A DNA stretch of 64,000 nucleotides from Bacillota bacterium (GTDB lineage Bacteria; Bacillota; Clostridia; Acetivibrionales; DTU013), in NCBI GenBank assembly GCA_023409735.1, contig JAEYRB010000023.1, positions 1,482 to 65,481 on the forward strand, read 5' to 3'. Below the pieces are notes generated by a model. It saw nothing but the letters and a program-made list of their open reading frames with translations, made no database searches and was not told where the DNA came from. Positions 22,631 to 60,917 of the stretch are shown piece after piece. The translations under genes and the position numbers were made by a program. Within the stretch, counting starts at the first letter, position 1. Each line of letters starts with the position of its first letter.

Positions 22631-22671
22631 GCGATATACTGTCAAATCATCAATAATGTTTTGTATCCGCT

Positions 22672-23871: not shown

Positions 23872-23933
23872 TTCAGTCTTCCTTTCAATAAAAATGCAAA
23901 CTCCAGCCGCTAATTCCCCTTTTGTCGGTGGGG

Positions 23934-33733: not shown

Positions 33734-34810
33734 ATGAAAGGTGATGGTGTCTTTTTGGCAAGTTTGAATGACGTAGCCAAAGCAGCAGGTGTGTCAATTA
33801 CGACTGCGTCCTTTGTAATCAACGGTCACGCTGAGGATATGCGGATTGCGCCCCATACGGCAGAAAAGGTCCTCGAAGCGGTACGAAAACTGGAATATGT
33901 TCCTAACGTTTCCGCAAAAAAACTTACAAATCGAATTGACCGCAGCAGTACAATACCTGAAATTGCAATATTATGGGCTCCTTCCCTGCATCCTGCTTTT
34001 CTTGGATCCTTTATTACAAATGCTCAGGAACTGTTCGATCAGGAACTGGTTCGTGAAATGCATATCACAGTCAGCCCATTTACTATAAATCATATTAATA
34101 ATCTGGAGAATGATTTTTTAGATCGTTATTATAACGGCGTTATAGTTTCACCTATTTACGATAAGGAATTCTCATATATTAACAATATAGCAACGAGAAT
34201 CCCTCTTGTTGTATTGCACGTTCGATCTGATAAACATCATAACGTAATTGTAGACAATTATATCACCGGTCGTAAAGCTGCAGAAATATTCGCAGCCAGA
34301 GGGCACCGTTCGGCTGCAATGTTTTATGTAAGAAATGTAGGAGCTACTAGCGAGCCAGACTACCGTCTGAGAGGCTTTAGTGAAACTTGCTTTACACATA
34401 ATATGGACTTCTTTGGTGTTGAGGTGCCTTTCGAATCACTAGGTCTCACTGTTGCCCGCTCGATGTACGGCAGACAGAAAGCTTTGGAATTTCTGCAAAA
34501 TAAAAAACTACCTGAAGCAATTTTTATTCAGGATGACGTCATTTCTATGGGATTTATTACAACGCTGCTTGGCGCAGGTGTTCGTATTCCTGATGATATA
34601 GAAATCATTACATACGGCAGCAACGACATTGCCGATGCTTGCCATCCTTCGATCACTACCATTGATTATCCCATATCAGACATTACAAGAGAAGCTCTAC
34701 AACTGCTAAGTGCTCAACTAAGCAACCCCTTCTCACAGCCGAAACTCATCGTTGTTACACCCACTGTTACTTTCCGGGAAAGCTGTCCAAAGCCTGATGG
34801 ATGGGAGTAA
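33734..34810 (+). CDS. LacI family transcriptional regulator
   Basis: HTH LNDVAKAAGVSITTASFVINGH plus a periplasmic-binding-fold C-terminus. An alternative TTG start lies at 33755. Confidence 0.85.
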   Translation: MKGDGVFLASLNDVAKAAGVSITTASFVINGHAEDMRIAPHTAEKVLEAVRKLEYVPNVSAKKLTNRIDRSSTIPEIAILWAPSLHPAFLGSFITNAQELFDQELVREMHITVSPFTINHINNLENDFLDRYYNGVIVSPIYDKEFSYINNIATRIPLVVLHVRSDKHHNVIVDNYITGRKAAEIFAARGHRSAAMFYVRNVGATSEPDYRLRGFSETCFTHNMDFFGVEVPFESLGLTVARSMYGRQKALEFLQNKKLPEAIFIQDDVISMGFITTLLGAGVRIPDDIEIITYGSNDIADACHPSITTIDYPISDITREALQLLSAQLSNPFSQPKLIVVTPTVTFRESCPKPDGWE

Positions 34811-34860
34811 AAAAAGCCATGTTACCTAAGCTGCCGATAACTCTATACCTTCCTTTATGT

Positions 34861-34891
34861 AAAAACAAACAAATCCTCCAATAAGGAGGAT
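34861..34891 (-). terminator. Intrinsic terminator ending the minus-strand hydrolase/ABC operon
   Basis: ATCCTCC-AATAA-GGAGGAT hairpin (34873-34891), followed on the minus strand by TTTGTTTGTTTTT. Confidence 0.55.
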
Positions 34892-34963
34892 AAAAATCTC
34901 TGCACCTTGTGGGGTATTTGCTATTACATATACAGGCTAAAGAAATCATTTCCTAAGCCGCGG

Positions 34964-36568
34964 CTATGATTTGGAAAACTGCCAGAGCGCGGCAAATTCA
35001 GGGCACCGGCGATACTCTCGAAGCAGCGGCATTAAGAGTTCTGTATCCTTCGACCTTAGTCCGTGTACAATTAAGGTCTCTTTACCTATGACCAACGTTT
35101 CTTGATTTTCTCGTGTAAACGGCAGCCATCTTACTGGGAGTGACTCACAGTTCGGATCTCCTGAGCGTGCAAAACTGCACCAAGCTCCTCGGATCTGTTT
35201 TTGCAAATACATCGGTGATTCGCAGTCATAAGCAAACAATATCGGGATTTCGCGTCCATGACCGAATCGGCTCCCATCCTGCAGCGGAAGCGCCAGATGA
35301 TACAGATATGCTCCTTTGTTGCAGGCGCAGACCATCGCATACGCCATTGCACCCATTCTTAGATATAAATCACCCTTCAAGTCCATGAACGCCTGAAATT
35401 GACTTCGGCAATCAGCATAATGAGAACAAAAAAGGTCTGTGATTTCAGGGGCAAAGCCACGCACCGGATCAAGCTTACCCCAGTTCTGAGAAACAGTAAG
35501 CTGTCTTGCTGCCTCCGCTTGACCCAATAGAGGCAACCCAGTAAACTGCTGGTCATACTCTCCGGCATTGGTACCGCCGAGAAACAGTACACGCCCGCAG
35601 CAACCCGAGCTAAAGCGCTGCCAGTAATCCTCAGGAATGGTAATACCGTCAATTACCGGTGCAAACAGCTTAGATTCTATACTTGAAAAAGCCGAGCTCC
35701 CTCCCATTGAGGCAGAGGCAATTTTGTTCTGAGCCTCGAGCAGCTCTTTATCTGACTTTTTCAATGCATGCTCTAAAGTCGAGCAGTCCAAAGCAGACAG
35801 TAGAGCATTAGATACAGTTCTGCTGTCATTGCATGTGGTCAGACTAATATCTGCCGCAAAGGAACTTTGACAGATTACCTTCTGAAAAAGTCCCTGTGCT
35901 TCTTCCATCAACATTAGTGCGGTAATATTACAGGAACCAGCTGACTGGCCGAACAGTGTAATATTTTCAGGATTGCCGCCAAATGCCTTAATGTTCTTCC
36001 TGATCCATCGCAGGCACTGCAAAATATCAAGCCTTGCAAGATTATTACTATATTGGTAAGCAGTATTTGTATCAGGTAATCCTGACAGATCCAAAGAGCC
36101 CCACATTCCAACACGGTAATTGGGTACTACCAAAATAATATCAGGATTTTCGCGGACAAGTTTACTTCCATCATAACTTAAAGGAAGCATACCGGGAGCG
36201 CAGGGCAGACATCCTACATTACTGCCGGCAATTTGCGCGCCGCCGTAGATCCACACCATAACTGCTTTATCAGTTTTTGCAGTGTCGGCCATGTAGAGGT
36301 TTAAGTTAAGGCAGTCGGCCGAAAGTCCGGCAGGAGCCATTGTTCCCCATTGTATATTATTCTGCCATGGTGCAGGGCCATATTGATCAGCAGGTATTCT
36401 ATCTTCCGAGGTGGTATTCATGTCGACAGCCCGTTTCCAACGTTCGGCGTTGCCAAAGGGTATTCCGAGAAATTTGACTGTCGATGCAGCTGTTTCATAT
36501 TTACCCAGATACGTCCCGTTTGGCGCAATTATAACCGGTGCCGTCTTATCTGTCAGCTGCATTTTCAT
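34964..36568 (-). CDS. Type-B carboxylesterase/lipase family protein
   Basis: Nucleophile elbow FGQSAGS and oxyanion-region IYGGA. 534 aa, para-nitrobenzyl-esterase-like. An alternative ATG lies at 36562. Confidence 0.85.
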   Translation of the reverse strand: MKMQLTDKTAPVIIAPNGTYLGKYETAASTVKFLGIPFGNAERWKRAVDMNTTSEDRIPADQYGPAPWQNNIQWGTMAPAGLSADCLNLNLYMADTAKTDKAVMVWIYGGAQIAGSNVGCLPCAPGMLPLSYDGSKLVRENPDIILVVPNYRVGMWGSLDLSGLPDTNTAYQYSNNLARLDILQCLRWIRKNIKAFGGNPENITLFGQSAGSCNITALMLMEEAQGLFQKVICQSSFAADISLTTCNDSRTVSNALLSALDCSTLEHALKKSDKELLEAQNKIASASMGGSSAFSSIESKLFAPVIDGITIPEDYWQRFSSGCCGRVLFLGGTNAGEYDQQFTGLPLLGQAEAARQLTVSQNWGKLDPVRGFAPEITDLFCSHYADCRSQFQAFMDLKGDLYLRMGAMAYAMVCACNKGAYLYHLALPLQDGSRFGHGREIPILFAYDCESPMYLQKQIRGAWCSFARSGDPNCESLPVRWLPFTRENQETLVIGKETLIVHGLRSKDTELLMPLLREYRRCPEFAALWQFSKS

Positions 36569-36714
36569 CTCTCCTTTATGACTATGTAGAAATTGTCTTA
36601 TATTCCAGCCAGGTGCAAAAATTTCTGCCTAATATATTTTTTTACTGCCTTAAAATACTTAACCGCTTTCATCTTAAACTTATACACTTGTTACTCAATA
36701 GTTTAAAACGGCTT

Positions 36715-37809
36715 TCAATACTCTTTGCCATATAAAATTCTGGATTGTCTATATAGCTCTTCATGGAACGCAGGTGTCATTTCCTTCATACTATATAAGT
36801 TGAAAATACTGGGCTTTTCCTTCCTGCAGAATTTATTAGCATACTCCCGTGCTGCTTCACGCTGTTCCTCCGATGTCTTTTCTGCATTGGGCACGCACAG
36901 AGGTACTGCAATAATAATTTTATCTCCGTACAACTCGTAAATCTTCTCAATATCATTCATAAGCTGAGGACGCCACGCATCCCAGCCTGCAGCAATATAG
37001 TTAGGAACCTGTTTGAAATTTTGCCCGCAGCTGTGGATAATGCAAGCTTTACTCCTGCTATGCAGGTAGTCCGTCACGCGCCGCATGTATGGAACAATCA
37101 TTTCCGCGGCAACCTCCGGTGCAAAGAAGGTTTCCTTTTGGCTGCCCCAATCATCATGAATATAGAATCCATCTATCATCGGATAATATTTCAGATAGCA
37201 CTCGAGGATTTCGATATATAAATCGGTAAGGTGCTCAAAGAATTCCTTGACAGCCCCCTTCTGATCCTCATCGATCATCGCAATTGCCGCGTTTTCAAAT
37301 CCCATGATGGAAATCAAACGTTCATACCATCCGTTCAGAAACCAGCAAATATTGAACAAGTCCTCTTTCAAAAAGTTTGTGTTAACAGTTGCACTGGATT
37401 TCCATTCCCATCGCCTAATATCCGGCCAATGCAGGCTATCCGCCAGGTCATTTGCATCATTCACAAAGCAATTACCTGGGCGTACCATAGAGCCACCGGC
37501 TGTTGGAACATATTCCCATATAATTCCAAACATGTCCGGGCCGCCTTCCTTCCTTTTTTCGTCACCTTTCGCAGTGGCATCAGCTACAAAGGCGCGTGCA
37601 ATATTGTCGGGATTGACGGCGGGAGCGAAGCTATGGTATTCCATTCCAGTGCCGCATATCTGCCATACCGGCTGGCGCGCAAAGAGTCTCTTGACAGCCT
37701 CACGGTCTGTGATTGGTGTATTATATTTTTCAATTGGTACCTCTCCATATGGATTGGGAATGGAACCAACAACCTTAAGCTCTTCTTTACTAAATGGTAT
37801 TGTATTCAT
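36715..37809 (-). CDS. Uroporphyrinogen decarboxylase (URO-D)-family protein, non-canonical
   Basis: About 364 aa with the C-terminal half pattern FYIHDDWGSQKETFFAPE...IIHSCG typical of URO-D/MtaA-like TIM barrels. AGGTG RBS before ATG 37809. Confidence 0.7.
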   Translation of the reverse strand: MNTIPFSKEELKVVGSIPNPYGEVPIEKYNTPITDREAVKRLFARQPVWQICGTGMEYHSFAPAVNPDNIARAFVADATAKGDEKRKEGGPDMFGIIWEYVPTAGGSMVRPGNCFVNDANDLADSLHWPDIRRWEWKSSATVNTNFLKEDLFNICWFLNGWYERLISIMGFENAAIAMIDEDQKGAVKEFFEHLTDLYIEILECYLKYYPMIDGFYIHDDWGSQKETFFAPEVAAEMIVPYMRRVTDYLHSRSKACIIHSCGQNFKQVPNYIAAGWDAWRPQLMNDIEKIYELYGDKIIIAVPLCVPNAEKTSEEQREAAREYANKFCRKEKPSIFNLYSMKEMTPAFHEELYRQSRILYGKEY

Positions 37810-37826
37810 TGTGTACACCTAACCTT

Positions 37827-38969
37827 TCATGAAATCACAACTTCGTCCCCATCCCAAGTAAATGTAGCATTAAGTCCTGCTTTAATTGTAATATCTTGCA
37901 TATAGTCAAAGACGGTTTGTCCGCCTTTTTCTCTGGTAACGGTATTTGTTACACCTTCCCGATCGACAATCATCGGGATGTAGCGAGTCTGCACTATACG
38001 TCCGCTTTCTACCACACACTTTGCAGCAGCAGTATAAATCGCCTCAGGATGGAACGGATAAGTAGGATATGATGGATCCGGTACAAAGCCAAACCTTTCG
38101 ATCCGCTTTCTGGCCCACTCCTCCGGATTGAAAAGAGCCGTATTGGCGCCTCCTGTGCGCTTGAAATCCGGCCGCAATGACGGAACCCAGGCAACGAAAT
38201 TGTTGAGTCCATGGTATATCGTCCGGCCCTTGTAAACTTCTATGCCATGTAGAATATGTGAGTGAGATGAGGTAACCACATCTGCACCGGCATCAATAGC
38301 AGCATGCGCAACTATTCTTTCATAATCTGCAAGTTTAATTGGTTTGTGTACGATACCCTTATGAAAATAAACACAAAGTACATCACACTGTTCCCTTAGT
38401 GTCGCTACTTCCTCCTGCATCCTTGCAAAGCTGACAGGCTCCGGCCATGTAAGAATCCGTTCAGGTGGCCCACCTGGATTGGCAATATCACCCATGTCAA
38501 ACTGTGTGATAATCTCCAAATACGAACATCCGGGCTTACCCTCCGATGCCCATGTTGCTTTAGGCCCTGTACAGTTATAGCCTATATAGCCTATCCTTGT
38601 GTCTCCATGCCGGAGAATCACTGGCTTAGATGCTTCCGTCAGGTTTTCGCCGGCGCTGGTAAAAGGCACCTGATGTGACCGCAGCCAATCCATGGTATCC
38701 TGGACTCCGACTGCTCCGGCATCATATATATGATTGCCGGCCAGAGTCAGTGCATCCACATACTGCATAAGTGGCTGCAACACACTGGGACTGCGGAAAA
38801 GACCTGCCAGCTCCGACGCACGATCACTGTACGGAACCTCCAGCTGTCCAAGCACAACATCCGCCTGCTCCAGTGTGTCTTTAACACCATGAAAATAATA
38901 ATCCGATCTATCACCAACTATTATATCACCTGTCATCAACATTATAAACCTATCAGTACTTTTTGACAT
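37827..38969 (-). CDS. CapA-family (PGA_cap, metallophosphatase-fold) protein
   Basis: MLMTGDIIVG..., LTLAGNHIYDAG, VVTSSHSHILHGIEVYKGRTIYHGLNNF. 380 aa with GGAGGG RBS. Confidence 0.75.
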   Translation of the reverse strand: MSKSTDRFIMLMTGDIIVGDRSDYYFHGVKDTLEQADVVLGQLEVPYSDRASELAGLFRSPSVLQPLMQYVDALTLAGNHIYDAGAVGVQDTMDWLRSHQVPFTSAGENLTEASKPVILRHGDTRIGYIGYNCTGPKATWASEGKPGCSYLEIITQFDMGDIANPGGPPERILTWPEPVSFARMQEEVATLREQCDVLCVYFHKGIVHKPIKLADYERIVAHAAIDAGADVVTSSHSHILHGIEVYKGRTIYHGLNNFVAWVPSLRPDFKRTGGANTALFNPEEWARKRIERFGFVPDPSYPTYPFHPEAIYTAAAKCVVESGRIVQTRYIPMIVDREGVTNTVTREKGGQTVFDYMQDITIKAGLNATFTWDGDEVVIS

Positions 38970-38987
38970 AAAGACCCTCCATTTCTT

Positions 38988-39833
38988 TTACAGAAGCTTT
39001 CTACTTCTGCAAAAATCCATGATGTCAGCTACGACTTCCTCTTTATGCTCCTGATCCAGCGCATGGCTGGCATCCTCGTATAGAATGAGTTTTGATTTTG
39101 GCACCGCGCGCACAGAACGGAGCAGATTCTCCGGAAGACTGATAGGGTCATGGATGCCACCAAGGAGCAAAGTAGGAACTTTGATCTGGTTTAAAACAGT
39201 AACAAGTTCATTTTCTGTTTTTATGTTCGCAAACGGTTTCTTAGGATTTAATCGCGCTTCCTCAAGACTCAAGCCTCGCCACCAGGACATCTGTTCCTTA
39301 TGTAGAGCAACGGCACGCGCCCATTCCTCTTCAGTTATATAATCTGGCCGATGTGGCTGTGATCTTCTCTCTATTTCGTCACAGTATGCCTTCCAGGTTT
39401 CATTACTCTGTGCGGCACGAATAGTACGCATTCTTGCATCCCCGGTCTCTTCACCATCCTTGCTGTGCGGACCTGCTACAATACCGAAAAAGCCACGCAA
39501 ACGCTCTGGATGATTAACACACAGATGCCAGCCAATACCCGCTCCATGCGACATTCCTGTATAAAAGAATTGGTCAATTCCCATAGCGTCAGCAAAATCA
39601 CATGTATCCTGTGCCCATACATCATACCAGGTATTACCCAGATCCTGCGTTACATGAGTAGACTGACCATAACCACGGATCGTAATATTAAAGACATGAA
39701 AGCTTTCTTCGGCAAGGTCAATTGTCCAGTTTTGAATTTTTGAATGATTTTGCTGGCAACAGAGCAAATATTGCTGTCCTTTGCCATATTCCTCATACTC
39801 CAGCTGAATATTTCCTAATTTTTTAATTAACAT
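38988..39833 (-). CDS. Alpha/beta hydrolase
   Basis: GxSxG elbow GMSHG and C-terminal His context ASHALDQEH. GGAGG lies 8 nt before ATG 39833; the track ORF extends to 39884. Confidence 0.75.
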   Translation of the reverse strand: MLIKKLGNIQLEYEEYGKGQQYLLCCQQNHSKIQNWTIDLAEESFHVFNITIRGYGQSTHVTQDLGNTWYDVWAQDTCDFADAMGIDQFFYTGMSHGAGIGWHLCVNHPERLRGFFGIVAGPHSKDGEETGDARMRTIRAAQSNETWKAYCDEIERRSQPHRPDYITEEEWARAVALHKEQMSWWRGLSLEEARLNPKKPFANIKTENELVTVLNQIKVPTLLLGGIHDPISLPENLLRSVRAVPKSKLILYEDASHALDQEHKEEVVADIMDFCRSRKLL

Positions 39834-39890
39834 TTCATTTACCTCCAGCAGATCGGCTATCATATAGTAGCACGTATCTGCCAATTTTAT

Positions 39891-41459
39891 TTATATACGC
39901 TTTGCCCTGATATAGTTAGCATGAATACAGCTTCGCCAGTGTTCATTTACGACATCTGTAGGGCTGCAGCGCAAATTATGTGCAATACCATTTTCCTGTT
40001 CAAGAATCAGAGAATTTGTGCATGTAAAATCCAGCGTTAAAATATTGCTGCCCATCCATGCATCGCTTCTAAACCAAAGTTCATATCTATACGGCGAGGC
40101 CCAGCGTCCTGCCGCATAACCCTCTTTTGTGTCATATCCCACATTTGTGTCAAGCCGAATACCATGATCCATTATTCTGTGTTCCGAGGGAGACTGCATT
40201 TCCATAAACCTTAAAGGAATATGACATGAGACCCATTTCCCATTTGGCGGCAGCAAAAGTACTTGCCTTTCATGCTCCGTCCAAAACTCCAGCCGTGTTT
40301 CCCGACTCAAAGGCGAAAAAGAAAGCTTGTTAATCCCGAAAAATGTTTCCGGTAGTACAAAATGCCCACCAAAATCCATGGCCGGTTGCGCCTCATCTCG
40401 GCCACACAAGTTCAGGTGTTCACTCTTTTCCAGCAGTCGAGCATAACTTTTGGGCGATTCGGGTATAGGATAAGCAAACATGTTACTGCTCAAGTACTTC
40501 CAAAGTAATTTCATAATTCGATCGGAACGTGGTTCATTTCCATGGATTGCTACGACAATATTCTGCTCAGGCAGTACAATACCAAGCTGGCCTGCGCCTC
40601 CATTCAGTGTAAAGCCGCCAAAATGATTGCGCCAGATTTGAAATCCGTATCCCGATCCCGGCTGAGTAGGAAATTCAGGTATGTCAATCATCTCTTTGCA
40701 GTTGGAGGTAGGAACCTGCCATGCACAAGCAGCCTTCACAATATCTGCCTGCAAAAGCTGTTTTCCATTCCATTGCCCGGCTTTTGCAAAAAATAATGAT
40801 ATTTTCAAAAAGTCAACTGTCCTTAGACAGAAAGTGGGCAGATCATCTCGTGCCCCTCTGCTCTCAATCCGCACTTCTGAAATTCCAAGTGGTTCAAATA
40901 ATCTTGGAGCGAGATACGAAGACACCCTATGCCCGGTCTTTCTAAATATAATCTCCGCAAGAATGTCAGGTATTCCGTTATCATAGAAAAAATGAGTACC
41001 CGGTTTATCAACAAATGGCTCCCTAAAGAATGCAGCAATAGGATCATCAGCTGCATGCATTTTGACATAGCTATCCTCCCTATGTCCAGCGTGCATCGTT
41101 AAGAGATTATATACTGTCATTCCTGCTGCAGCTTTATCTGCATATTCTGCTGCCTCAGGCAAAAGCTCTAATACATGATCTTGCAGAGAAAAAAGATCCT
41201 CCTCAACAGCAAACAGAACCGCTGCTGCAACAAGAGTCTTTCCTGCAGAACAAATTCGCTGTAGCTTATCAAGTCCAAACGGTTTCCAGAAGCAATTCAG
41301 CAGAAGCTTCTCATTTCGCAGAAGCAAAAGACTATGCAGCTCCAGATGCTCTCGCTCTACAGCATCGAGAAACGCTAGCAATGCTTCGGAACGGATACCT
41401 TCAGATTCCGGCGTTGCAGTTCTCCATTCAATGGCCACGTGCATACTTACCCCTTTCAT
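39891..41459 (-). CDS. Beta-lactamase-fold serine hydrolase (class C / D-aminopeptidase-like) with a roughly 170-aa C-terminal extension
   Basis: SxxK = SAGK and YxN = YDN. 522 aa. ATG 41459 overlaps the ATPase stop (ATGA); an alternative ATG at 41444 has AAAGGGG upstream. Confidence 0.8.
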   Translation of the reverse strand: MKGVSMHVAIEWRTATPESEGIRSEALLAFLDAVEREHLELHSLLLLRNEKLLLNCFWKPFGLDKLQRICSAGKTLVAAAVLFAVEEDLFSLQDHVLELLPEAAEYADKAAAGMTVYNLLTMHAGHREDSYVKMHAADDPIAAFFREPFVDKPGTHFFYDNGIPDILAEIIFRKTGHRVSSYLAPRLFEPLGISEVRIESRGARDDLPTFCLRTVDFLKISLFFAKAGQWNGKQLLQADIVKAACAWQVPTSNCKEMIDIPEFPTQPGSGYGFQIWRNHFGGFTLNGGAGQLGIVLPEQNIVVAIHGNEPRSDRIMKLLWKYLSSNMFAYPIPESPKSYARLLEKSEHLNLCGRDEAQPAMDFGGHFVLPETFFGINKLSFSPLSRETRLEFWTEHERQVLLLPPNGKWVSCHIPLRFMEMQSPSEHRIMDHGIRLDTNVGYDTKEGYAAGRWASPYRYELWFRSDAWMGSNILTLDFTCTNSLILEQENGIAHNLRCSPTDVVNEHWRSCIHANYIRAKRI

Positions 41460-43471
41460 TTACTTGCCTGAAAACAGGCCACAAAATGTCCTGGCTGTAC
41501 CTCCTTCAGTGAAGGAATTGCATTGCAGCAGGCATCTGTTGCATAATCACAGCGATTATTAAACGGGCAACCTGCAGGCCGCTTAATAATACTTGGAACC
41601 TCGCCTTTAAGAACTACCTTTTTACTGTTGTTTTCAGCTTCAGGATCAGGCAGGGGAACTGCACACATCAGTGACTGTGTATATGGATGCAGGGGATTAT
41701 TATAAAGATCTTCACTAGATGTCAGCTCCACTATCATCCCAAGGTACATAACAGCTACACGATGACTAATATGCTTTACTACAGACAGATCATGTGCCAC
41801 AAATAGATACGACAGATTTAACTCATTTTGTAGATCCTCCAGCAAATTTATAATCTGTGCCTGAATTGAAACATCCAGCGCCGAAATTGGCTCATCACAG
41901 ATAATAATTTCAGGTTTGCAGGCTAATGCACGAGCAATACCGATACGCTGTCTTTGTCCTCCTGAAAACTCATGTGCTACACGCTCACGCATGGACGGCT
42001 CCAAACCAACCATACGAAATAACTCATCCACACGTCGGTCATATTCCGCATTGCTTTTAACAAGGCCATAGGGATAAAGAGGCTCTCCAACCAGGCTGCC
42101 GGCAGTTTTTCTTGGATCCAGTGAACTGTACGGGTCCTGAAATATCATCTGAATTCTGCGCCGTTCTCTACGAAACTTGTGTTCAGGTATAGAGAGGATT
42201 TCCTGTCCATCCAGATAAACACTGCCCTTTGCCTCATCTAGCAGCTTTAACACCGCTTTAGCAGTTGTTGTTTTTCCACATCCCGACTCTCCTACTAGTC
42301 CCAGTGTTTCACGTTTATGCAGCTGAAAGTTGACATTCTGCAATACATTCAGCGAGCCAACCTTCTTCATGAACAGGCCCTTTTTAATTGGGAAGGATAC
42401 GCAGATATTTTCTGCCTTCATTACCACCTGCTCTAAAGGAATAGCTTTTTGCTTTTTCTCTGCAGCCGTCCATGCACGCTCCTGTGTGTCAAGCTCATTT
42501 GCATTAAGAAAGCATGCGACAAAATGACCGGTGCTAATTTCCCTCAGGGTCGGTGTGCTGCCTTTCTCGCACTGATTACAAGCATACTTGCATCTATCAC
42601 GGAACTGACATCCCGGCTTTCGGTCAGAAGGAGAAGGCGGAGTGCCTTCAATAGGCGTCAAACGGTCACTTTCGACATCCAGCCTGGGGATTGCCTTTAA
42701 CAGTCCCCTTGTATAGGGATGTGATGGTGATTTAAAAATTTCCAAAGTCGTGCCTGATTCAACAATATTTCCGGCATACATAACATAGATACGCTGAGCG
42801 TATTTAGCGACTATCCCGAGATTATGAGTAATCATAACCAGCGCAGAATGATTCTTTCTTGACAGAGACTTCAGCAGATCGAGGATTTGCGCCTGAGTCG
42901 TCACATCCAGCGCGGTTGTTGGCTCATCAGCCACTATCATATCCGGATTGCCAGCTATGGCAATTGCTATCATAATTCTCTGGCGCATACCTCCGGAAAA
43001 CTGATGAGGATAATCGTCGAGTCTGTTTGCTGCGTCAGGAATTCCAACCTGCTCAAGCAGCTCTGCAGCCCTTTTCCTCGCTTCTTGCTTTGAAGCCTTA
43101 CAGTGGAGCACTATTGACTCCATCAGTTGATAGCCCACTGTTTTTACGGGATTCAGGGACGTCATCGGCTCTTGAAAAATCATACCGATTCGACCGCCGC
43201 GCACACTGCGCATATATGCACTTTTAGCTTTATGGGTAAGAAGATCTTCCCCTTCCAGCAGTACCTGTCCACTTTCGATTTTTCCGGGTGGTGTAGGGAT
43301 CAGCTGCAGTGCGGCCAGCTGAGTCTGGCTCTTCCCTGAACCGCTTTCCCCAACAATACCGATAATCTCACCGCTATCCACATATAAAGATACGTGATCC
43401 ACTGCACGTGTTAATCCATCAGTATTTTTATAGGTTACAGATAAATCTTTTATTTCCCAAAAATGTTCCAT
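41456..43471 (-). CDS. Fused double ATP-binding subunit of a peptide-type (DppD/DppF-like) ABC importer
   Basis: Two Walker A motifs (GESGSGKS, GESGCGKT), two signatures (FSGGMRQR, FSGGQRQR), and two C-terminal oligopeptide-type Cys-rich tails. The start is MEHFWEIKD at 43471, after the permease stop. Confidence 0.9.
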   Translation of the reverse strand: MEHFWEIKDLSVTYKNTDGLTRAVDHVSLYVDSGEIIGIVGESGSGKSQTQLAALQLIPTPPGKIESGQVLLEGEDLLTHKAKSAYMRSVRGGRIGMIFQEPMTSLNPVKTVGYQLMESIVLHCKASKQEARKRAAELLEQVGIPDAANRLDDYPHQFSGGMRQRIMIAIAIAGNPDMIVADEPTTALDVTTQAQILDLLKSLSRKNHSALVMITHNLGIVAKYAQRIYVMYAGNIVESGTTLEIFKSPSHPYTRGLLKAIPRLDVESDRLTPIEGTPPSPSDRKPGCQFRDRCKYACNQCEKGSTPTLREISTGHFVACFLNANELDTQERAWTAAEKKQKAIPLEQVVMKAENICVSFPIKKGLFMKKVGSLNVLQNVNFQLHKRETLGLVGESGCGKTTTAKAVLKLLDEAKGSVYLDGQEILSIPEHKFRRERRRIQMIFQDPYSSLDPRKTAGSLVGEPLYPYGLVKSNAEYDRRVDELFRMVGLEPSMRERVAHEFSGGQRQRIGIARALACKPEIIICDEPISALDVSIQAQIINLLEDLQNELNLSYLFVAHDLSVVKHISHRVAVMYLGMIVELTSSEDLYNNPLHPYTQSLMCAVPLPDPEAENNSKKVVLKGEVPSIIKRPAGCPFNNRCDYATDACCNAIPSLKEVQPGHFVACFQASK

Positions 43472-43481
43472 ATAATATCTC

Positions 43482-44339
43482 CTATAACGTTCCTCTAAGT
43501 CGCGGATCGATTGCATCACGCAGACCGTCACCAAGGATATTGAAGCCCAGAACCAGAAGCATGATGCACAGTCCTGGAGAAAGCGCATACACTGGATTTA
43601 TTAACATCATTGTATAGGATTCGCTTACCATTCCTCCCCAGCTAGCGGTAGGTGCCGACACACCAAGGCCAAGAAAATTAAGACTTGACTCGCATAAAAT
43701 TGTTGTGCCGATATTAGCAGTTAAAACTACCAGTACAGGAGAGATACAGTTTGGCAGCAAATGCAGCCATATTTTTCTTTTGTTGCTTATTCCAAGTACC
43801 TTTTCAGCTGTCATAAAATCTGAGTTGCGAATTTGCAAGACCTGTGCCGACATGATTCTCGCATATGTAGGCACAGTCGCCAGTCCGAGAACAATCATCA
43901 AGCCCAGAATAGATCCTGTTTTGAACATCATACTCAATGCCATAGCCAGCATAATGTTAGGAATAGACATCAGAGCATCGATTATACGGGATAAAACAGA
44001 GTTAATCACCCCACCGTAAAATCCGCAGACAAGGCCGATTGTAACACCTATTACAGCTGCAATTATCACTGAAGCAAAACCAATTAAAAGCGAAGTACGT
44101 GCACCAAACATTAATCGGGTCAAAATGTCACGTCCTAGCTTATCTGTTCCCAGCAGGTGCTCCGCGGAAGGTGACTTTAACGTTGTTTTAATGCTTGTAA
44201 GGTATGGATCGTAAGGAGACAATATAGGGGCAAAAATTGCCGCAAGAATAAATAACATAACAAGAATAGCGGCAAATACCACCAGTTTCCTACTGAATAA
44301 CGTTTTAATTGTATATGCGAATCTGGATTGATGTTTCAT
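43482..44339 (-). CDS. ABC importer permease (DppC/OppC-like)
   Basis: 285 aa and 6 TM, with an EAA-loop region and the C-terminal DAIDPRLR motif. Confidence 0.9.
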   Translation of the reverse strand: MKHQSRFAYTIKTLFSRKLVVFAAILVMLFILAAIFAPILSPYDPYLTSIKTTLKSPSAEHLLGTDKLGRDILTRLMFGARTSLLIGFASVIIAAVIGVTIGLVCGFYGGVINSVLSRIIDALMSIPNIMLAMALSMMFKTGSILGLMIVLGLATVPTYARIMSAQVLQIRNSDFMTAEKVLGISNKRKIWLHLLPNCISPVLVVLTANIGTTILCESSLNFLGLGVSAPTASWGGMVSESYTMMLINPVYALSPGLCIMLLVLGFNILGDGLRDAIDPRLRGTL

Positions 44340-44351
44340 ACCATTCCCTCC

Positions 44352-45296
44352 TTACTGAATCCGAATTCTAGGATCAAGATATCCGTAGCAGATATCAACG
44401 ATAAGATTAGACACCACAACCACAATAGCGATAATCATAACACAGGCTTGTATGACCGGCAGATCTCTTGCCAGAATACTTGCAACAAGCAAAGAGCCCA
44501 TGCCTGTTATAGAAAATACTGTTTCAATTGTCACAGCTCCGGAAACAATATTACGCAGGCTCATTCCAATAATCGTAATAACCGGAATAATAGCATTTTT
44601 CATAGCATGTCTCATGATTACCCGGCTTTCCTTCAAACCTTTAGAACGTGCTGTACGTATATAATCCTGACGGACTACCTCCAGCATACCTGATCGCATT
44701 TGTCTTGTCATACCGGCAATTGCTCCTACACTTAGGCAGGCGACCGGCATAATTGTCTGCTTAATGCTCATTGCCAATCCATCTGATGGAAACGAAAAAC
44801 CAAAGGACGGAAGCCATTCAAGCTTCATCGAGAATATATACATACCAACAACTGCCAGCCAGAAGCCAGGTACAACAGAGCCAAGATTAGCCAGGACAGT
44901 CAGAATATTGTCAATCAGTTTCCCACGGTTAGTGCCGCACAATGTTCCGAACAAAATACCCAATAATATACTTATTATTAGAGAAATGACTCCAAGATAC
45001 ATAGTAATTGGAAGCCGCTGTTTCAAAAGCTCCTGTACAGGTATCGTATAGCGGTAGGATTCCCCGAAATCACCCAGAGCAAACTTGCATACCCAGTGCC
45101 AGTATCGGACTGAAATGGGCTTATCCAATTCCATTAATTCATACTGTGCCTGATACTGCTCCATCGTAATATCAGGGCCCAAAATAGCGTAAACAGGATC
45201 GCCCGGTATCAGATACATCATAAAATAGGAAAACAGGGAGATCAAGATGATTACGACCAGTGCTTGTATAAGTCGCTTTACAATAAACCGGCTCAT
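44352..45296 (-). CDS. ABC importer permease (DppB/OppB-like)
   Basis: MSRFIVKRLIQALVVI N-terminus, QDYIRTARSKGL EAA motif, and C-terminal YLDPRIR. Confidence 0.9.
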   Translation of the reverse strand: MSRFIVKRLIQALVVIILISLFSYFMMYLIPGDPVYAILGPDITMEQYQAQYELMELDKPISVRYWHWVCKFALGDFGESYRYTIPVQELLKQRLPITMYLGVISLIISILLGILFGTLCGTNRGKLIDNILTVLANLGSVVPGFWLAVVGMYIFSMKLEWLPSFGFSFPSDGLAMSIKQTIMPVACLSVGAIAGMTRQMRSGMLEVVRQDYIRTARSKGLKESRVIMRHAMKNAIIPVITIIGMSLRNIVSGAVTIETVFSITGMGSLLVASILARDLPVIQACVMIIAIVVVVSNLIVDICYGYLDPRIRIQ

Positions 45297-45333
45297 GACA
45301 TGCTCCTTTCTTTCAGGAGAATATTTAAATATA

Positions 45334-45361
45334 GCAGGGGGACGGTCGGTATTCCCCCTGC
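45334..45361 (-). promoter_or_regulatory. Intercistronic GC-rich stem-loop between the SBP and permease genes
   Basis: GCAGGGGGA-10 nt-TCCCCCTGC (9-bp stem) with no strong T-run. It is a typical mRNA-stabilising or partial-termination element after binding-protein genes. Confidence 0.4.
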
Positions 45362-45384
45362 ATTAAATTTCTGAATTTTAAATA

Positions 45385-47031
45385 TTATTTTGTAAAGTGT
45401 GCTGTTTCCGGTGTCCAGATAATGTAATTGATCTGATAGATACCATGATCTGCAACATTGCCATTAGTGAAGATTGCGCTACTACTGGTCCACATAGGAA
45501 GCAACTGGCAGTAGTCGTCAATGACCATCTTGGAAAGCTGTTGGCTATAATTCTTCTTTTCATCAAATGTCTTGCAGCTCATTGCATTCTGCAGTGTTTC
45601 AACGATATCATCGTAGTGATTAACTTGGTTGACCCAACGGACTCCATCGGGTAAGAATGTACGGTTGTAATAAGTACTCAGATCAACTTCCGCACGACCG
45701 GCACTGAGAACCATACCTGTGTATGCTTCACCCTTAACACCAGATAAATCATCAAGGCGGGCCTGCTCTATAGCTTCAATGGATGCTTTTATTCCAACCT
45801 CAGCCAAGTAATCCTGAACCAGGACACAAATTGATTCAGATTCGCTGCTGTTAGTCATATAATATATTACCATATCAAAACCATCCGGGTAACCGGCCTT
45901 TTTTAAATAATCCTTTGCTGCTTGCGGATCATACGGATAACCCTTTGTTTCAGGATTACTTGACCATACGTTATTGGGACCCCATTGAATAGTGCGGTCA
46001 TATATAGCACCAGTCTGTGAAGAGCAGTACTCCCAGATTGCATCCATATCAATAGCAGAAGCTATTGCACGGCGAGCATCAACATTTCCCATAGGGCCTT
46101 TATCCTGGCAGCTAAACCAGAATATTGATGTAGCAGCGCCACTTACAAGAGGCTTGGTTTCGGACGTAAATCCTTTAGATTTCAGGGTCATACTTGTGTC
46201 ACTTGAGCAATCAATGATCGCATCAACTTCTCCTGCCATAAATGCTGAAGACTGTGTAGCTGCATCCTTTATGAAATGGAATTCAACGCCATCCAAATAA
46301 GGCATTCCATCAATCCAGTAATCTTTATTGGCTTCAAATACAACCTTCTGATCAGTTACCCAGGATGCAAACTTGAATGGTCCTGTACCAACCGGATTAC
46401 GGTCAGCAGCGTCGGTTCCATTAGCTTCAGCATAATCCTTAGAAATTATAGTACCGGCAGTATACAAGCAAGCAGTAGCTATAGAATTGGACCAGTTTTT
46501 AAGATGCACAACAATTGTATGTTCATCAATTATTTCATATTTATCAACACCGGTCAGTTCCATATTGCCGCATTCAGTCCACTTTTCCCAGTTCCATACA
46601 ACAGCTTCGGCATTGAAATCAGAACCGTCATGGAACTTTATACCTTCGCGCAGATGAACTGTTAAAGTCATTGCGTCAGGATCTTCTTCATATGCTGTGC
46701 ACAGCCAAGGTTGCAAAGTACCATCCTCATTATAGCGGCATAGATGCTCTAAACATGTATCAGCGATTAAGGAGGCCTGGAAGGTCAAGCTCAACTGCGG
46801 ATAACCAATGTGAAGAACGTCTGTACCGAGCCCAATTTTAAAGACACCGCCATATTTCGCCGCATCCCCATCTGTTGAAGGCTCTGCTTCCGTAGTTTGG
46901 GTTTGTTCAGTCTGTGTTTTATCCTGAGTTTCCGTCTCTTTGGTTGTTTCCTGCTTGCTTGTACATGCTGCAAGAGAGCATGCCATTACAAGTGCTAGGA
47001 ACAATGCAATCCACTTCTTTGTAGGTTTCAT
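45385..47031 (-). CDS. Family-5 (peptide/nickel/opine type) ABC substrate-binding lipoprotein
   Basis: Lipobox LVMACSLAAC, then a T/E/Q-rich linker. 548 aa. GGGGAGG RBS. Confidence 0.9.
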   Translation of the reverse strand: MKPTKKWIALFLALVMACSLAACTSKQETTKETETQDKTQTEQTQTTEAEPSTDGDAAKYGGVFKIGLGTDVLHIGYPQLSLTFQASLIADTCLEHLCRYNEDGTLQPWLCTAYEEDPDAMTLTVHLREGIKFHDGSDFNAEAVVWNWEKWTECGNMELTGVDKYEIIDEHTIVVHLKNWSNSIATACLYTAGTIISKDYAEANGTDAADRNPVGTGPFKFASWVTDQKVVFEANKDYWIDGMPYLDGVEFHFIKDAATQSSAFMAGEVDAIIDCSSDTSMTLKSKGFTSETKPLVSGAATSIFWFSCQDKGPMGNVDARRAIASAIDMDAIWEYCSSQTGAIYDRTIQWGPNNVWSSNPETKGYPYDPQAAKDYLKKAGYPDGFDMVIYYMTNSSESESICVLVQDYLAEVGIKASIEAIEQARLDDLSGVKGEAYTGMVLSAGRAEVDLSTYYNRTFLPDGVRWVNQVNHYDDIVETLQNAMSCKTFDEKKNYSQQLSKMVIDDYCQLLPMWTSSSAIFTNGNVADHGIYQINYIIWTPETAHFTK

Positions 47032-47065
47032 TGTTTTTCCTCCCCTTTTATTATGTATCTTTTAT

Positions 47066-47102
47066 TTTTTCCACACATGTGGAAAAATCTAAAACGTTTT
47101 AG
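47066..47102. promoter_or_regulatory. Two adjacent perfect palindromes (candidate operators) in the 5' UTR of the ABC/hydrolase operon
   Basis: TTTTTCCACA-CA-TGTGGAAAAA (47066-47087) and CTAAAACGTTTTAG (47089-47102). The second has the central-CG architecture of LacI-family operators. Confidence 0.45.
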
Positions 47103-47197
47103 CAAGGCGAGCCTTTACTAATTAATCTACAGGTTGGCTAAGTAATATATTTTTTTGTTTAAGTTATTTTTTTGCTATAACGATTTAGCACAAAAAC

Positions 47198-47226
47198 AGT
47201 ATAAATCCTTTAGTAACTAATGTCAA
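47198..47226 (-). promoter_or_regulatory. Sigma-A promoter of the ABC/hydrolase operon
   Basis: The minus strand reads TTGACA (47221-47226) - 17 nt - TATACT (47198-47203), about 160 nt upstream of the SBP ATG. Confidence 0.5.
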
Positions 47227-47310
47227 TAATAGATTTGAAAAAGGACATACGTTTTTGATTTGTAAAAGAATATAGGTTACGTGGGAATATTTCAATATTG
47301 GTGGTTATGA

Positions 47311-48435
47311 TTAAAAGACCTTTTCATGTAGATATTTTTCTATATAATCCACTACATAAAAAGAAAACTGCAACTGTTCACGTATTGAATGATCTTTCAG
47401 GGAAACACCCAAAAGCTCCTGCAGCTTCTCAAGCTTGTTAAGCATTGTATTGCGATGTATAAATAATTCTCTTGCTGTCTGGCTCATATTGCAATCATTT
47501 TCCAAAAATCTCCGCAAGACATGTGCAAAATTGGTATCATGTTTTCTATCATGCCGGAGGACATTTCCCAGAGCCGGGTGGCATAGATAGACCAGATCGT
47601 TCACCTTCAGTTCGCTTTTATATGCATTAGCACAGAATTCCGCTATATGATAATTGACATAATGCTCATAAAGAAATACTCTCTTACCATCTACTTGATG
47701 AAGCGCAATGCCAAACCTCATGGCTGCCTTCGCTTGTTGGTATAATGCTTTTACAGCGATTAGCCGTACAGCGCTGTTGGAAACAGCTGCATAAGCGGAA
47801 TTACTGTTCAGATAATCGTTCAGTACCTTATCAGGCAATGTAGGTACTGTCTCGTTTTCCTTTAGAGAAAGAAGTACCACGATGTCACCTTTGTATGCAA
47901 AAACTGAGTTCTGTTGCAAGATATGTCGAAGCTTTAGTACTGCACTTTCCCAAGGAGTGTTTTCAGAGTTCCCAAAAAAAGAAACCATAATAAGGCAAAA
48001 CCGTTTTGATAGCTGCAGTCCTAGCCCACGCACCAACTCTGCAACATTTTCACCGACCTGAAGCTTGCCCTCAATCAAACGAACTATCAGGCTGCCATAT
48101 CCGGTGGATGAATGTTCCTTTTGCCGCAGCGTGTGCAAAGCGCGCTGCGCACTAGCTGAAATGAAATTTGTCTGTAGCGGAAAGCAGACGATATTACTTT
48201 CCTCAGGTATAACAATGCTCTCAGGTAAATTGCCGGAGCAGAAAGCACATAGGTGATTCCCATTTTCACAGGATAAAAACGTTTGTATTTCATCTTGCTT
48301 TAGTACATAAATATTTGCAGGAGATGGGTTTGTGTCTGAAGGCAGCACACAAGCTTCGTCAGAAATTTCATCCATTCTGATCTGGTAGTAACTTATATCA
48401 AGTTGCATTTGTTCCAGTAATTGTGTTAGCCTCAT
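47311..48435 (-). CDS. PucR/CdaR-family transcriptional regulator
   Basis: C-terminal HTH NMSQTARELFIHRNTMLNKLEKLQELLG. 374 aa. Confidence 0.8.
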   Translation of the reverse strand: MRLTQLLEQMQLDISYYQIRMDEISDEACVLPSDTNPSPANIYVLKQDEIQTFLSCENGNHLCAFCSGNLPESIVIPEESNIVCFPLQTNFISASAQRALHTLRQKEHSSTGYGSLIVRLIEGKLQVGENVAELVRGLGLQLSKRFCLIMVSFFGNSENTPWESAVLKLRHILQQNSVFAYKGDIVVLLSLKENETVPTLPDKVLNDYLNSNSAYAAVSNSAVRLIAVKALYQQAKAAMRFGIALHQVDGKRVFLYEHYVNYHIAEFCANAYKSELKVNDLVYLCHPALGNVLRHDRKHDTNFAHVLRRFLENDCNMSQTARELFIHRNTMLNKLEKLQELLGVSLKDHSIREQLQFSFYVVDYIEKYLHEKVF

Positions 48436-48628
48436 AAATTTTTCTCCTTTGATGCAACTTTCGTTTCATCTTGCTAAAGTCCAAATTTGTGTAAAGTATA
48501 CATGACAGCTCCAAAAAACGGGGCAGGATGCACCTTCTATATTATCTACTCCATAAGCTATAATAACAAACAATAGTCTGCTTATTCAACATAAATTAAT
48601 GTACTTAAATGGAAGGGATGATATTAAT

Positions 48629-49840: not shown

Positions 49841-49846
49841 TATCAG

Positions 49847-49890
49847 AAATGCACATACAACAGCATTGCTATAGTATGTGCATTTTCATT
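49847..49890 (+). terminator. Intrinsic terminator after the CoA-transferase gene
   Basis: 11-bp perfect stem AAATGCACATA / TATGTGCATTT (49847-49857 and 49875-49885), followed by TTTTCATT. Confidence 0.6.
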
Positions 49891-49995
49891 AATATTCTGG
49901 GTTTTTCAACCTGCCATAAAATTTGTTAATAGCAGTTCCCATATTTTCCAGCTCAACTGGTGAGATATTTCCCCCACCCCTTTTAAGAAAGCACT

Positions 49996-51312: not shown

Positions 51313-51315
51313 GCC

Positions 51316-52476: not shown

Positions 52477-52776
52477 AAAAATACCTCCTGGAGCTATTTT
52501 GTAAAGATATTTTAATTATAATGCCGCGAAAAATCAGTAACCATGTTAAGGACTCCTATATTTGATGATTTTCAATGTGCAGTTAGCACATACTTTCATG
52601 AGCTTTTAATATAGCGAAGTACTTAGTCTTCTCTATAAACAAGGTAATTCAACTATTGTAAGGCAGTGATATAGTGAATAATGTTTTATATTTGCAGCAT
52701 AAAACAACTTACTATAGAAAAGCAGAAGTCCATATAATATACTATTTATAAAAGTCAACATTAGAAGGAGCTTATA

Positions 52777-59082: not shown

Positions 59083-59403
59083 ATACATCAAACCTCCCTG
59101 AACCTCATTGCACACAGCGCTTAATAAAACCCATTGATTATGTGATCGTGCAGCTTCACACTTGCTTTTTATGCCCTAACCTATTCGACATACAACGACC
59201 TGTCCCGACATACTAATCCACTCTTATTCGCCTTAATAAATCTTGTACTCTAAACAGATTCAATCTTTATTCTTGACCTAAATTAACCTACCATAACGTT
59301 TTTCAACATAATAACTTACTTTATCTTCTTTATTCTGCTTGGTGCTTTTACCACTTCATTTACAACAATCACCAGGCATACTATCTACCGCTGATCCTGC
59401 ACT

Positions 59404-60917
<1,514 letters not shown>

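Follow-up and report, generated by a model that had tools for sequence, protein, structure and literature searches.

In the murein-peptide operon dppABCDE-ykfABCD of Bacillus subtilis, a Dpp/Opp-type importer is co-transcribed with cytoplasmic dismantling enzymes that include an epimerase, and the iaaA-gsi arrangement of Escherichia coli follows a similar logic. The E. coli importers GsiABCD and YejABEF consist of a family-5 solute-binding protein (SBP), two permeases and a fused double ATPase with two oligo_HPY domains. In the phenyllactate dehydratase system FldABC, a family-III CoA-transferase is combined with an HGD-D pair. Here we analyse a locus that resembles each of these systems in part. 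It lies in a 64,000-nucleotide stretch of a Bacillota contig (JAEYRB010000023.1; this whole stretch is called the window below) and is built around an operon of nine minus-strand genes for a peptide-type ABC importer, three serine hydrolases, a CapA-like protein and a protein of the URO-D fold (Table 1). It shares no enzyme family with dpp-ykf or with the iaaA-gsi arrangement: unlike the B. subtilis operon, the window locus has no DppA D-aminopeptidase, LD-carboxypeptidase, enolase-type epimerase or NlpC/P60 protein, is linked to genes for a CoA-transferase and HGD-D proteins, and is probably controlled by a LacI-family repressor.

The functional unit is larger than the nine-gene operon. Four more genes lie directly upstream, for a regulator of the PucR type, a family-III CoA-transferase and two proteins resembling 2-hydroxyacyl-CoA dehydratases (HGD-D), and the whole extends over ~19 kb (about 33734-52591). 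We consider it very probable that the operon and the HGD-D and CoA-transferase genes make up one conserved catabolic system. Our favoured model of what this system does is more tentative, and we give it somewhat less than an even chance of holding overall: an anionic ester or amide conjugate would be imported and de-esterified, and the released acid epimerised, activated with CoA and dehydrated.

Conservation of the gene cluster

The nine open reading frames (ORFs) had been described in an earlier note, made from the sequence alone, which read them as a co-conserved module for uptake and dismantling and proposed a neighbourhood comparison as a check. That comparison bears the reading out, since transporter and enzymes co-occur elsewhere (related loci carry L numbers here). 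All nine genes recur in the same order in L006, together with the PucR-type gene, two HGD-D genes and the CoA-transferase gene, these four being rearranged. Protein identities to the window are 72-80% for the transport proteins, 72% for the alpha/beta hydrolase, 69% for the CapA-like protein, 63% for the URO-D-like protein, 51% for the esterase and 42% for the beta-lactamase-fold protein. Subsets of the nine are found in L003 (transporter, beta-lactamase-fold gene, alpha/beta hydrolase and esterase, followed by MFS and LacI genes), in a Blautia contig (L042: transporter, alpha/beta hydrolase, esterase and CapA), in Ruminiclostridium papyrosolvens (L045: alpha/beta hydrolase, transporter, CapA and LacI) and in L050, L056 and L084. 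More distant lineages carry related sets. Halalkalibacter krulwichiae has three HGD-D genes, the CoA-transferase, a family-5 SBP, two CapA genes, an S15 hydrolase and an alpha/beta hydrolase, with a LacI gene nearby; L049 holds the CoA-transferase, CapA, LacI and both HGD-D subunits (67% and 91% identity) together; and a plasmid of an aerobic Novosphingobium carries a CocE/NonD hydrolase, a TonB receptor, CapA, a TRAP transporter, the CoA-transferase and HGD-D.

To quantify the linkage, 79 metagenome loci were fetched through the CapA-like subfamily alone and all neighbouring ORFs were clustered; counts refer to the 33 de-duplicated loci of at least 8 kb. HGD-D or CoA-transferase genes accompanied the CapA-like gene in 17 of the 33 (the CoA-transferase itself in 15), Opp-type ABC genes in 15, and at least one of ABC, TRAP, HGD-D or CoA-transferase genes in 26. 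The other enzymes of the operon were rare in this set: the alpha/beta hydrolase appeared in 2 loci, the esterase in 1, a URO-D protein of the window type in 1, and the beta-lactamase-fold protein in none. From these counts and the distant lineages we conclude that the core consists of the CapA-like protein, HGD-D, the CoA-transferase and an interchangeable importer, and that the serine hydrolases are lineage-specific additions; they vary as accessories from locus to locus, as does the URO-D-fold protein.

A second recurrent architecture (L105, L111, L114, L116, L119 and L126, mostly from sediment metagenomes) comprises MarR, HGD-D, two CoA-transferase genes, HGD-D, the CapA-like gene, a TRAP transporter (DctPQM) and a 442-aa URO-D-family protein, so that a URO-D-fold protein accompanies the core in two independent layouts. 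Elsewhere the ABC importer is replaced by TRAP, MatC/CitMHS-like or MFS transporters; in a metagenome-assembled genome (MAG) of a rumen Oscillospiraceae, for instance, the beta-lactamase-fold and alpha/beta hydrolase genes stand as a pair behind a MatC/CitMHS-like dicarboxylate carrier, with no ABC genes. The TRAP and MatC-like carriers, taken with the LacI, GntR and MarR regulators of these clusters, point to a small, acidic, non-peptide ligand and favour an organic-acid conjugate. Beta-oxidation genes (a 3HCDH-ECH fusion and a thiolase) recur as neighbours. Distant plasmid-borne CapA-like genes of Cupriavidus and Rhizobium (~30% identity) lie in organic-acid or aromatic catabolic contexts; no HGD-D gene accompanies them, and they therefore lend weak support.

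The CapA-like protein

The core CapA-like protein is ~380 aa long and highly conserved, with a mean column identity of 66% over 20 sequences. Its subfamily comprises 162 clusters at 50% identity (E<=1e-30), and a word-index search returned more than 2,300 proteins at E<=0.001. CapA proteins had been brought into connection with poly-gamma-glutamate in the earlier note. The PGA_cap domain is indeed present, but this association did not hold for the window protein: no membrane anchor is obvious in its N-terminus (MSKSTDRFIMLMTGDIIVGD, read by eye), and neither the window nor the set of frequent neighbours compiled from 89 related loci includes a pgsB- or pgsC-like gene. Synthesis or degradation of poly-gamma-glutamate was rejected on these grounds, the protein being apparently cytoplasmic.

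The nearest solved structure is that of MslH (8gq9), a Ca-dependent epimerase of the C-terminal Trp of a lasso peptide (PDB 8gq9; PMC10406935). In MslH the catalytic dyads are His88/Asp91 and His295/Asp11, and the metal is held by Glu44, Asn87, His259 and His261 (PMC10406935). Both proteins are soluble members of the PGA_cap/calcineurin-like family, and the window protein keeps the equivalents of E44, N87 and H88 (N79 and H80), D91 (D83), H261 (H203) and H295, residues that are largely generic to the PGA_cap family; its D15 lies within an N-terminal GD motif. It differs from MslH in having a tyrosine (Y201) in place of H259, in a highly conserved C-terminal extension (RFGFVPDPxYPTYPFHPE) and in its catabolic setting. 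No lasso-peptide genes are present in the locus, and the MslH equivalog NF038314 gave 69.7 bits vs a cut-off of 700. The usual annotation of PGA_cap proteins is "capsule biosynthesis" (the Novosphingobium record carries such GO terms), and here a conserved subfamily sits in catabolic clusters; if it does act as a small-molecule epimerase, many PGA_cap genes would need re-annotation. Separately, a glycyl-radical enzyme (PFL-like) and its activase occur near CapA-like genes in L048, L055 and L124.

The HGD-D pair and the CoA-transferase

Both HGD-D proteins match PF06050 (171 and 154 bits) and form a two-subunit pair. The alpha-like subunit has four invariant cysteines in the alignment (C93, C96, C136 and C384), while no conserved cysteine was found in the beta-like subunit among 17 sequences, the cysteines of BzdN/HadC aligning to D, V, T and E. 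The arrangement resembles FldABC/FldI and HadA/HadBC/HadI in that a family-III CoA-transferase stands beside an HGD-D alpha/beta pair, and the closest solved structures include HadB and HadC. Unlike the Fld and Had systems, however, the window pair has lost every cluster cysteine of the beta subunit, and no activator ATPase was found with it among the scanned ORFs or the frequent neighbours, the beta-subunit cluster and the activator being defining features of those systems. The cluster also occurs in aerobes, and the CoA-transferase has its closest matches in Frc/YfdW and succinate-type enzymes (NF003809 328 bits vs a cut-off of 442; YfdW in the PDB at 1e-65). The alpha-like protein of Novosphingobium sp. 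ES2-1 (L128) is 39% identical to that of the window and keeps three of the four cysteines, C384 being replaced by Asn. A 292-aa "hypothetical protein" in the same region (plasmid p1, NZ_CP063446.1 388134-407228) is a degenerate HGD-D beta-like protein (22% identity, E = 3e-12). An HGD-D pair that works without beta-subunit clusters or a nearby activator, and in aerobes too, would widen the known chemistry of this scaffold.

The importer and the accessory enzymes

With its SBP, two permeases (one of them carrying OppC_N, PF12911) and an ATPase with oligo_HPY domains, the importer belongs by Pfam to the Opp/Dpp/Nik (PepT) family. GsiB, GsiA and YejF are among its best NCBIfam matches, and it shares with E. 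coli GsiABCD and YejABEF the component set described above. It differs from them in that its SBP is a Gram-positive lipoprotein and in that all scores fall under the equivalog cut-offs: the SBP, whose best equivalog is GsiB, reached 143 bits vs 594, and the ATPase 610 vs 1077 (GsiA) and 633 vs 834, so that assignment as a GsiABCD glutathione importer fails. Relatives of the SBP in the PDB include GsiB/YliB, AgaA, HbpA and DppA. Although the ORF of the double ATPase runs from 43588, the true start of the gene is its M40, at 43471; the identical metagenomic contig L001 has the protein at 671 aa.

Five hydrolase-like enzymes had been proposed for the operon. Three are serine hydrolases; the CapA-like and URO-D-fold proteins are not hydrolases by family. 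An N-terminal signal peptide is apparently missing from all the operon enzymes (sequences read by eye), which fits import followed by hydrolysis in the cytoplasm.

The 522-aa protein has the motifs of a serine beta-lactamase fold within PF00144, with S71-x-x-K74 and Y159-x-N161 invariant in the sequences of 9 relatives. At the place where the third motif (KTG, HxG or WxG elsewhere) would be expected, the alignment gives N-G-G-x-G-Q, of which G287, G288, G290 and Q291 are invariant. The family is rare: a search of 5.8 billion clusters gave about 9 full-length relatives with more than 35% identity, the nearest ones in genomes coming from gut and rumen Clostridia MAGs. An AlphaFold2 (AF2) model with a predicted local distance difference test score (pLDDT) of 83.6 shows a catalytic domain followed by an all-beta C-terminal domain of ~160 residues. 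The leading Foldseek matches in the PDB are the Lsa45 esterase (template-modelling (TM) score 0.81 over its own length, E = 3.5e-17), EstG, the nylon-oligomer amidase NylB and family VIII carboxylesterases, with macrolactin and lovastatin acyl-enzymes next; as modelled, the fold is thus closest to esterases and NylB-type enzymes. SxxK and YxN are shared with these proteins, from which the window protein differs in its low identity (16-20%), its extra C-terminal domain, the GGAGQ sequence at the third-motif position and the rarity of its family. The 522-aa protein diverges much faster than its neighbours: in L006 and L003 its identity is 42-44%, compared with 58-80% for the neighbouring genes, which points to either relaxed constraint or a shift in substrate specificity.

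For the alpha/beta hydrolase the best NCBIfam matches are an enol-lactonase and macrolide esterases, all far under cut-off. Its gene pairs with the beta-lactamase-fold gene in L003, L006, L008, L009 and L050, and with the CapA-like gene in L045, L052, L056 and L084. The carboxylesterase has a full-length PF00135 (COesterase) domain with the G-x-S-x-G elbow, and its gene is kept after the other enzymes, at short gaps, in L006 (51%), L003 (41%) and L042 (43%).

Membership of the URO-D fold family is agreed by Pfam, where the match is borderline, by the AF2 model (pLDDT 87.8) and by Foldseek, whose top 23 PDB matches are all UROD (TM 0.45-0.58, about 0.53; 15-17% identity). HDDWG and H259-S-C261 are invariant in the alignment, C256 and C328 nearly so, and the resulting H-x-C...C pattern may correspond to the zinc site of MT2/MetE-type alkyl-transferases. 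About 970 homologues were found, which NCBI naming calls "methyltransferase". A true HemE was not supported, given the low identity to solved URODs, the lack of a PDB match by sequence and the catabolic context. A corrinoid methyltransferase (MT2, MtaA/CmuA) was likewise unsupported (NF004889 19.7 bits vs 244); no corrinoid-protein partner is encoded in the locus, and MtaA structures lie outside the top fold matches. Tandem URO-D-like paralogues 60% and 57% identical to the window protein occur at 10001-12183 of L046 in an unrelated context, so that the gene is not a universal partner of the cluster and the family is not restricted to this pathway.

Proposed pathway and alternative readings

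In our model the system would have two layers: a widespread core of the CapA-like metalloenzyme, the atypical HGD-D pair, the family-III CoA-transferase and a high-affinity importer (here an ABC importer of the Gsi/Yej type), and a lineage-specific layer made up of the family-VIII/NylB-like, PcaD-like and type-B serine hydrolases and the URO-D-fold protein with its zinc-type H-x-C...C pattern. A small anionic conjugate, in which one or more ester (possibly amide or lactone) bonds would join a second moiety to an acid substituted at the alpha position and probably of the hydroxy- or di-carboxylic kind, would be bound by the lipoprotein SBP and imported. The serine hydrolases would then cleave it in the cytoplasm. 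The CapA-like enzyme would invert the alpha-carbon of the freed acid by two-base, metal-assisted chemistry of the MslH type on a metal-bound carboxylate. Finally, the CoA-transferase would activate the acid, and the HGD-D-like enzyme would dehydrate or otherwise convert the acyl-CoA toward beta-oxidation-like metabolism. The earlier note had guessed at a D-amino-acid-containing, gamma-linked or depsipeptide-like conjugate; the ester or depsipeptide-like half of that guess fits the data better, the D-amino-acid or gamma-linked half less well. It had also been unable to place the gene combination on a characterised pathway, and the literature on this combination likewise yielded no equivalent; nothing relevant was found there on a catabolic role of CapA/MslH homologues either.

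Several points weigh against this model. Family-5 SBPs usually bind peptides, opines or nickel, and MslH acts on a peptide C-terminus, so that a peptide substrate is still conceivable. No homologue of any core protein has been characterised, every NCBIfam equivalog score is far under its cut-off, and the substrate class is deduced from gene context. The HGD-D pair is non-canonical, its beta subunit retaining no cluster-binding cysteine at all, and no BcrAD_BadFG activator was found among the ~45 scanned ORFs of the window or the annotated frequent neighbours in the 89 loci, though one could lie elsewhere in the genome. As the cluster is present in aerobes, the HGD-D enzyme may not be a radical dehydratase. 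The gap before the esterase gene could hold a promoter, the single transcript being a prediction, and the assignment of the candidate operators to the LacI protein of the window is likewise only presumed.

The first alternative is that an unusual D-amino-acid-containing or gamma-linked peptide is imported and dismantled, with the 522-aa protein as a D-stereospecific peptidase, the alpha/beta hydrolase as an S33-type aminopeptidase and the CapA-like protein as an epimerase of peptide C-termini. The transporter is of peptide type (SBP_bac_5, OppC_N, oligo_HPY, likeness to GsiB/GsiA), the CapA-like protein has a peptide epimerase as its closest solved relative, weak Hydrolase_4 (S33) and Peptidase_S15 matches were seen and CocE/NonD S15 genes occur in related loci, and the fold matches of the 522-aa protein include the amidase NylB, the DL-peptidase Lip3 and SurE-type PBP cyclases. 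The D-aminopeptidase analogy drawn earlier for that protein did not survive: the equivalog NF009622 gave 28 bits vs a cut-off of 443, D-aminopeptidase lies outside the top 50 Foldseek matches, and such an identity was rejected; SxxK/YxN is present but generic to the fold. Carboxylate carriers of the TRAP or MatC-like type replace the importer elsewhere, regulators of the LacI, GntR or MarR families go with the clusters, no metallopeptidase or classical peptidase family was found in any locus, and a peptide model leaves the tight link to the CoA-transferase and HGD-D unexplained. We regard this alternative as unlikely.

A narrower version of the favoured model would have the conjugate be a plant hydroxycinnamate or other aromatic ester of a hydroxy acid (of the rosmarinic-, chlorogenic-, caffeoyl-malate or -tartrate type), from which the esterases would free an aryl-lactate or hydroxy-dicarboxylate for a Fld-like CoA-transferase and dehydratase. 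It draws on the FldABC-like combination of a family-III CoA-transferase with an HGD-D pair, on a weak BD-FAE (feruloyl esterase) match of the carboxylesterase, on aromatic hydroxylase and Dabb genes that adjoin the cluster in Halalkalibacter, on genes for a 3-hydroxyphenylpropionate hydroxylase, a VOC and an FAH protein beside a distant CapA-like gene of N. aromaticivorans, and on the gut, rumen and plant-degrading settings of the carriers. We hold this version to be quite improbable: no FldI-type activator turned up among the scanned window ORFs or the frequent neighbours, the HGD-D beta subunit has no cluster, the CoA-transferase is closest to oxalate- and succinate-type enzymes, and no protein is directly tied to an aromatic ligand.

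Far less likely still is a role with bile-acid or sterol acyl esters, in which the 522-aa protein would act like, or reverse, 3-succinylated cholic acid synthase (BAS-suc) and the CoA-transferase would act like BaiF. BAS-suc is a beta-lactamase-type enzyme (PMC11749272), and its model (NF045925) is the best NCBIfam match of the 522-aa protein (residues 11-380, E = 5e-38), whose nearest relatives come from the gut and rumen. The score of 130.8 bits falls well short of the cut-off of 800, though, so that membership fails, and the genomic context is another one. Bacteria of soil and sediment and aerobes carry the core cluster too, the window has no bai genes and the CoA-transferase is closest to Frc/YfdW. 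Finally, the genes might adjoin by chance, with a capsule-type CapA gene and esterases of unrelated detoxifying function lying beside a generic importer of peptides or nickel. This reading could appeal to the absence of a substrate linking the genes, to the size and promiscuity of each enzyme family and to the gap ahead of the esterase, but it is barely credible and largely refuted by neighbourhood conservation, with gene order kept in L006 at 42-80% protein identity, subsets in at least six further loci of different lineages, tight spacing or overlap of the genes, one strong promoter and one terminator, and a CapA-like protein without an obvious anchor or pgsB/pgsC neighbours.

Returning to the favoured model of an imported organic-acid conjugate, the locus is of a type devoted to substrate-specific uptake and catabolism, and its uncharacterised core could be new enzymology. 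A bolder extension, which we regard as possible but doubtful, is that the CapA-like protein, an activator-less HGD-D with a cluster-free beta subunit and the CoA-transferase constitute an undescribed pathway for alpha-substituted (hydroxy- or di-)carboxylic acids. This pathway would be widespread and possibly oxygen-tolerant, with a calcineurin-fold racemase or epimerase and an HGD-D enzyme free of ATP-driven radical activation, and the window operon would be a version of it with a recruited ABC importer and esterases. If so, it spans Clostridia, Bacillaceae and Sphingomonadaceae. In the gut, the cluster would mark an unrecognised nutrient niche of Clostridia, probably organic-acid ester conjugates. 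Cultivable carriers exist in Ruminiclostridium papyrosolvens, Halalkalibacter krulwichiae and Novosphingobium sp. ES2-1.

Promoter, leader and candidate operators

The operon promoter given in the earlier note was found (score 11/12) and ties for the best promoter-like score within 15 kb. In the leader that follows it, CTAxAxCGxTxTAG occurs twice (O1 and O2 in Table 1), and two other species have counterparts of it ahead of the SBP gene, L006 at 4309 and L056 at 4392, in the latter with a LacI gene adjoining it. The window protein has the helix-turn-helix and the periplasmic-binding-protein-like domain of the LacI family, and palindromes with a central CG stand near the promoter; the sites are nevertheless candidate operators. 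An orthologue 53% identical to the LacI protein is encoded among the CoA-transferase, CapA and HGD-D genes of L049, and LacI genes also lie within the clusters of L003, L045, L047, L054, L056 and L084. We propose that the repressor would keep the importer-hydrolase operon silent by way of two operators flanking the leader. A further palindrome of the leader, TTCCACATGTGTGGAA, is not a terminator, as no U-run follows it, and may be the site of a second regulator. A riboswitch in the 160-nt leader was rejected, with no Rfam match at E<=1 and a fold z score of -1.87.

The PucR-type gene occupies the same position in L006 and adjoins CapA, HGD-D and CoA-transferase genes in L051, L055, L078 and L089; its product probably controls the HGD-D genes. 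The candidate regulator site upstream of these genes has a counterpart, ATGTGC-N4-GCACAT, in the equivalent intergenic region of L006 (3102).

Operon layout and surroundings

An ORF scan reproduced the nine minus-strand ORFs, and Pfam and NCBIfam agree with the families the earlier note had named, the URO-D match being borderline. Successive genes are separated by 88, 12, 10, -4, 57, 18, 17 and 146 nt, the negative value being an ATGA stop/start overlap at 41456-41459 and the last one the gap ahead of the carboxylesterase gene; the hairpin with its T-run and the convergent LacI gene follow, as had been reported. A further claim, that the operon is a compositionally distinct island, had to be dropped. 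The operon has 44.4% G+C vs 40.9% for the rest of the window, and other coding blocks (17943-24458, 55979-62740 and 47311-52476) lie at 44-45.5%; the 60-nt samples behind the claim were too small to support it, and horizontal acquisition judged by composition was rejected.

Table 1. Coordinates of the features of the locus (positions in the window)
Feature	Position	Strand	Family match or remark
LacI-family repressor gene	33734..34810	+	Pfam LacI + Peripla_BP_3
Intrinsic-terminator-like hairpin + T-run	34873..34891	-	Operon end
Type-B carboxylesterase, GQSAGS	34964..36568	-	PF00135, 221 bits, residues 11-508
URO-D-fold protein	36715..37809	-	PF01208, 24.4 bits vs cut-off 23.9
CapA-like (PGA_cap, calcineurin-like fold) enzyme, cytoplasmic, core component	37827..38969	-	PF09587, 145.5 bits
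PcaD-like alpha/beta hydrolase, GMSHG	38988..39833	-	Pfam Abhydrolase_1
522-aa beta-lactamase-fold serine hydrolase	39891..41459	-	PF00144, 96 bits
Fused double ABC ATPase, GsiA/YejF type	41456..43471	-	PF00005 + PF08352 (oligo_HPY), each twice
OppC/DppC-type permease	43482..44339	-	PF00528 (BPD_transp_1)
OppB/DppB-type permease	44352..45296	-	PF00528 (BPD_transp_1)
Family-5 solute-binding lipoprotein	45385..47031	-	PF00496, 250 bits; lipobox LAAC
Leader palindrome, TTCCACATGTGTGGAA	47069..47084		Perfect 16-bp palindrome beside LacI-type site
LacI-type operator candidate O2, CTAAAACGTTTTAG	47089..47102		Perfect 14-bp palindrome, central CG; 86 bp beyond O1
LacI-type operator candidate O1, CTAAATCGTTATAG	47175..47188	-	9 nt downstream of -10 box
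Sigma-70-type promoter, TTGACA-17-TATACT	47198..47226	-	
PucR-type regulator	47311..48435	-	GGDEF_2 + HTH_30 (Pfam)
Family-III CoA-transferase (Frc/YfdW-like)	48599..49840	+	PF02515, 320 bits
HGD-D alpha-like subunit	49996..51312	-	PF06050; HadB in PDB at 4e-18
HGD-D beta-like subunit	51316..52476	-	PF06050
Palindrome upstream of HGD-D genes, ATGTGC-N5-GCACAT	52575..52591		Candidate regulator site

Chromosomal housekeeping genes flank the operon (MazG, YabQ, tRNAs, NAPRTase and an ilv/leu block with T-box leaders). Judged by YabQ, the T-box leaders and the ilv/leu genes, the window comes from a Clostridia-like chromosome of a spore former. The exact window proteins are on record in NCBI, ENA and Logan assemblies, and no species match was found among 185,579 GTDB species representatives; either the organism is rarely sampled or its representative genome does not carry the cluster. 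At 30871-33310 lie an MBOAT (DltB/AlgI-like) gene and, overlapping it, an ORF of 345 aa for which Pfam gave no match; both are kept beside the LacI gene in L001 and L002, and they probably form an O-acyltransferase pair that has no relation to the operon. T-box leaders at 13012-13266 (+) and 63056-63290 (-) both score above the Rfam gathering score, the second preceding the ilv/leu block. Two tandem LeuA-like paralogues (HMGL-like + LeuA_dimer) with overlapping stop and start lie at 55979-59115, and one of them may be a citramalate or homocitrate-type synthase. Finally, a LigD gene with ligase, primase-polymerase and phosphoesterase domains forms, together with Ku, a bacterial non-homologous end-joining module at 1811-5367.

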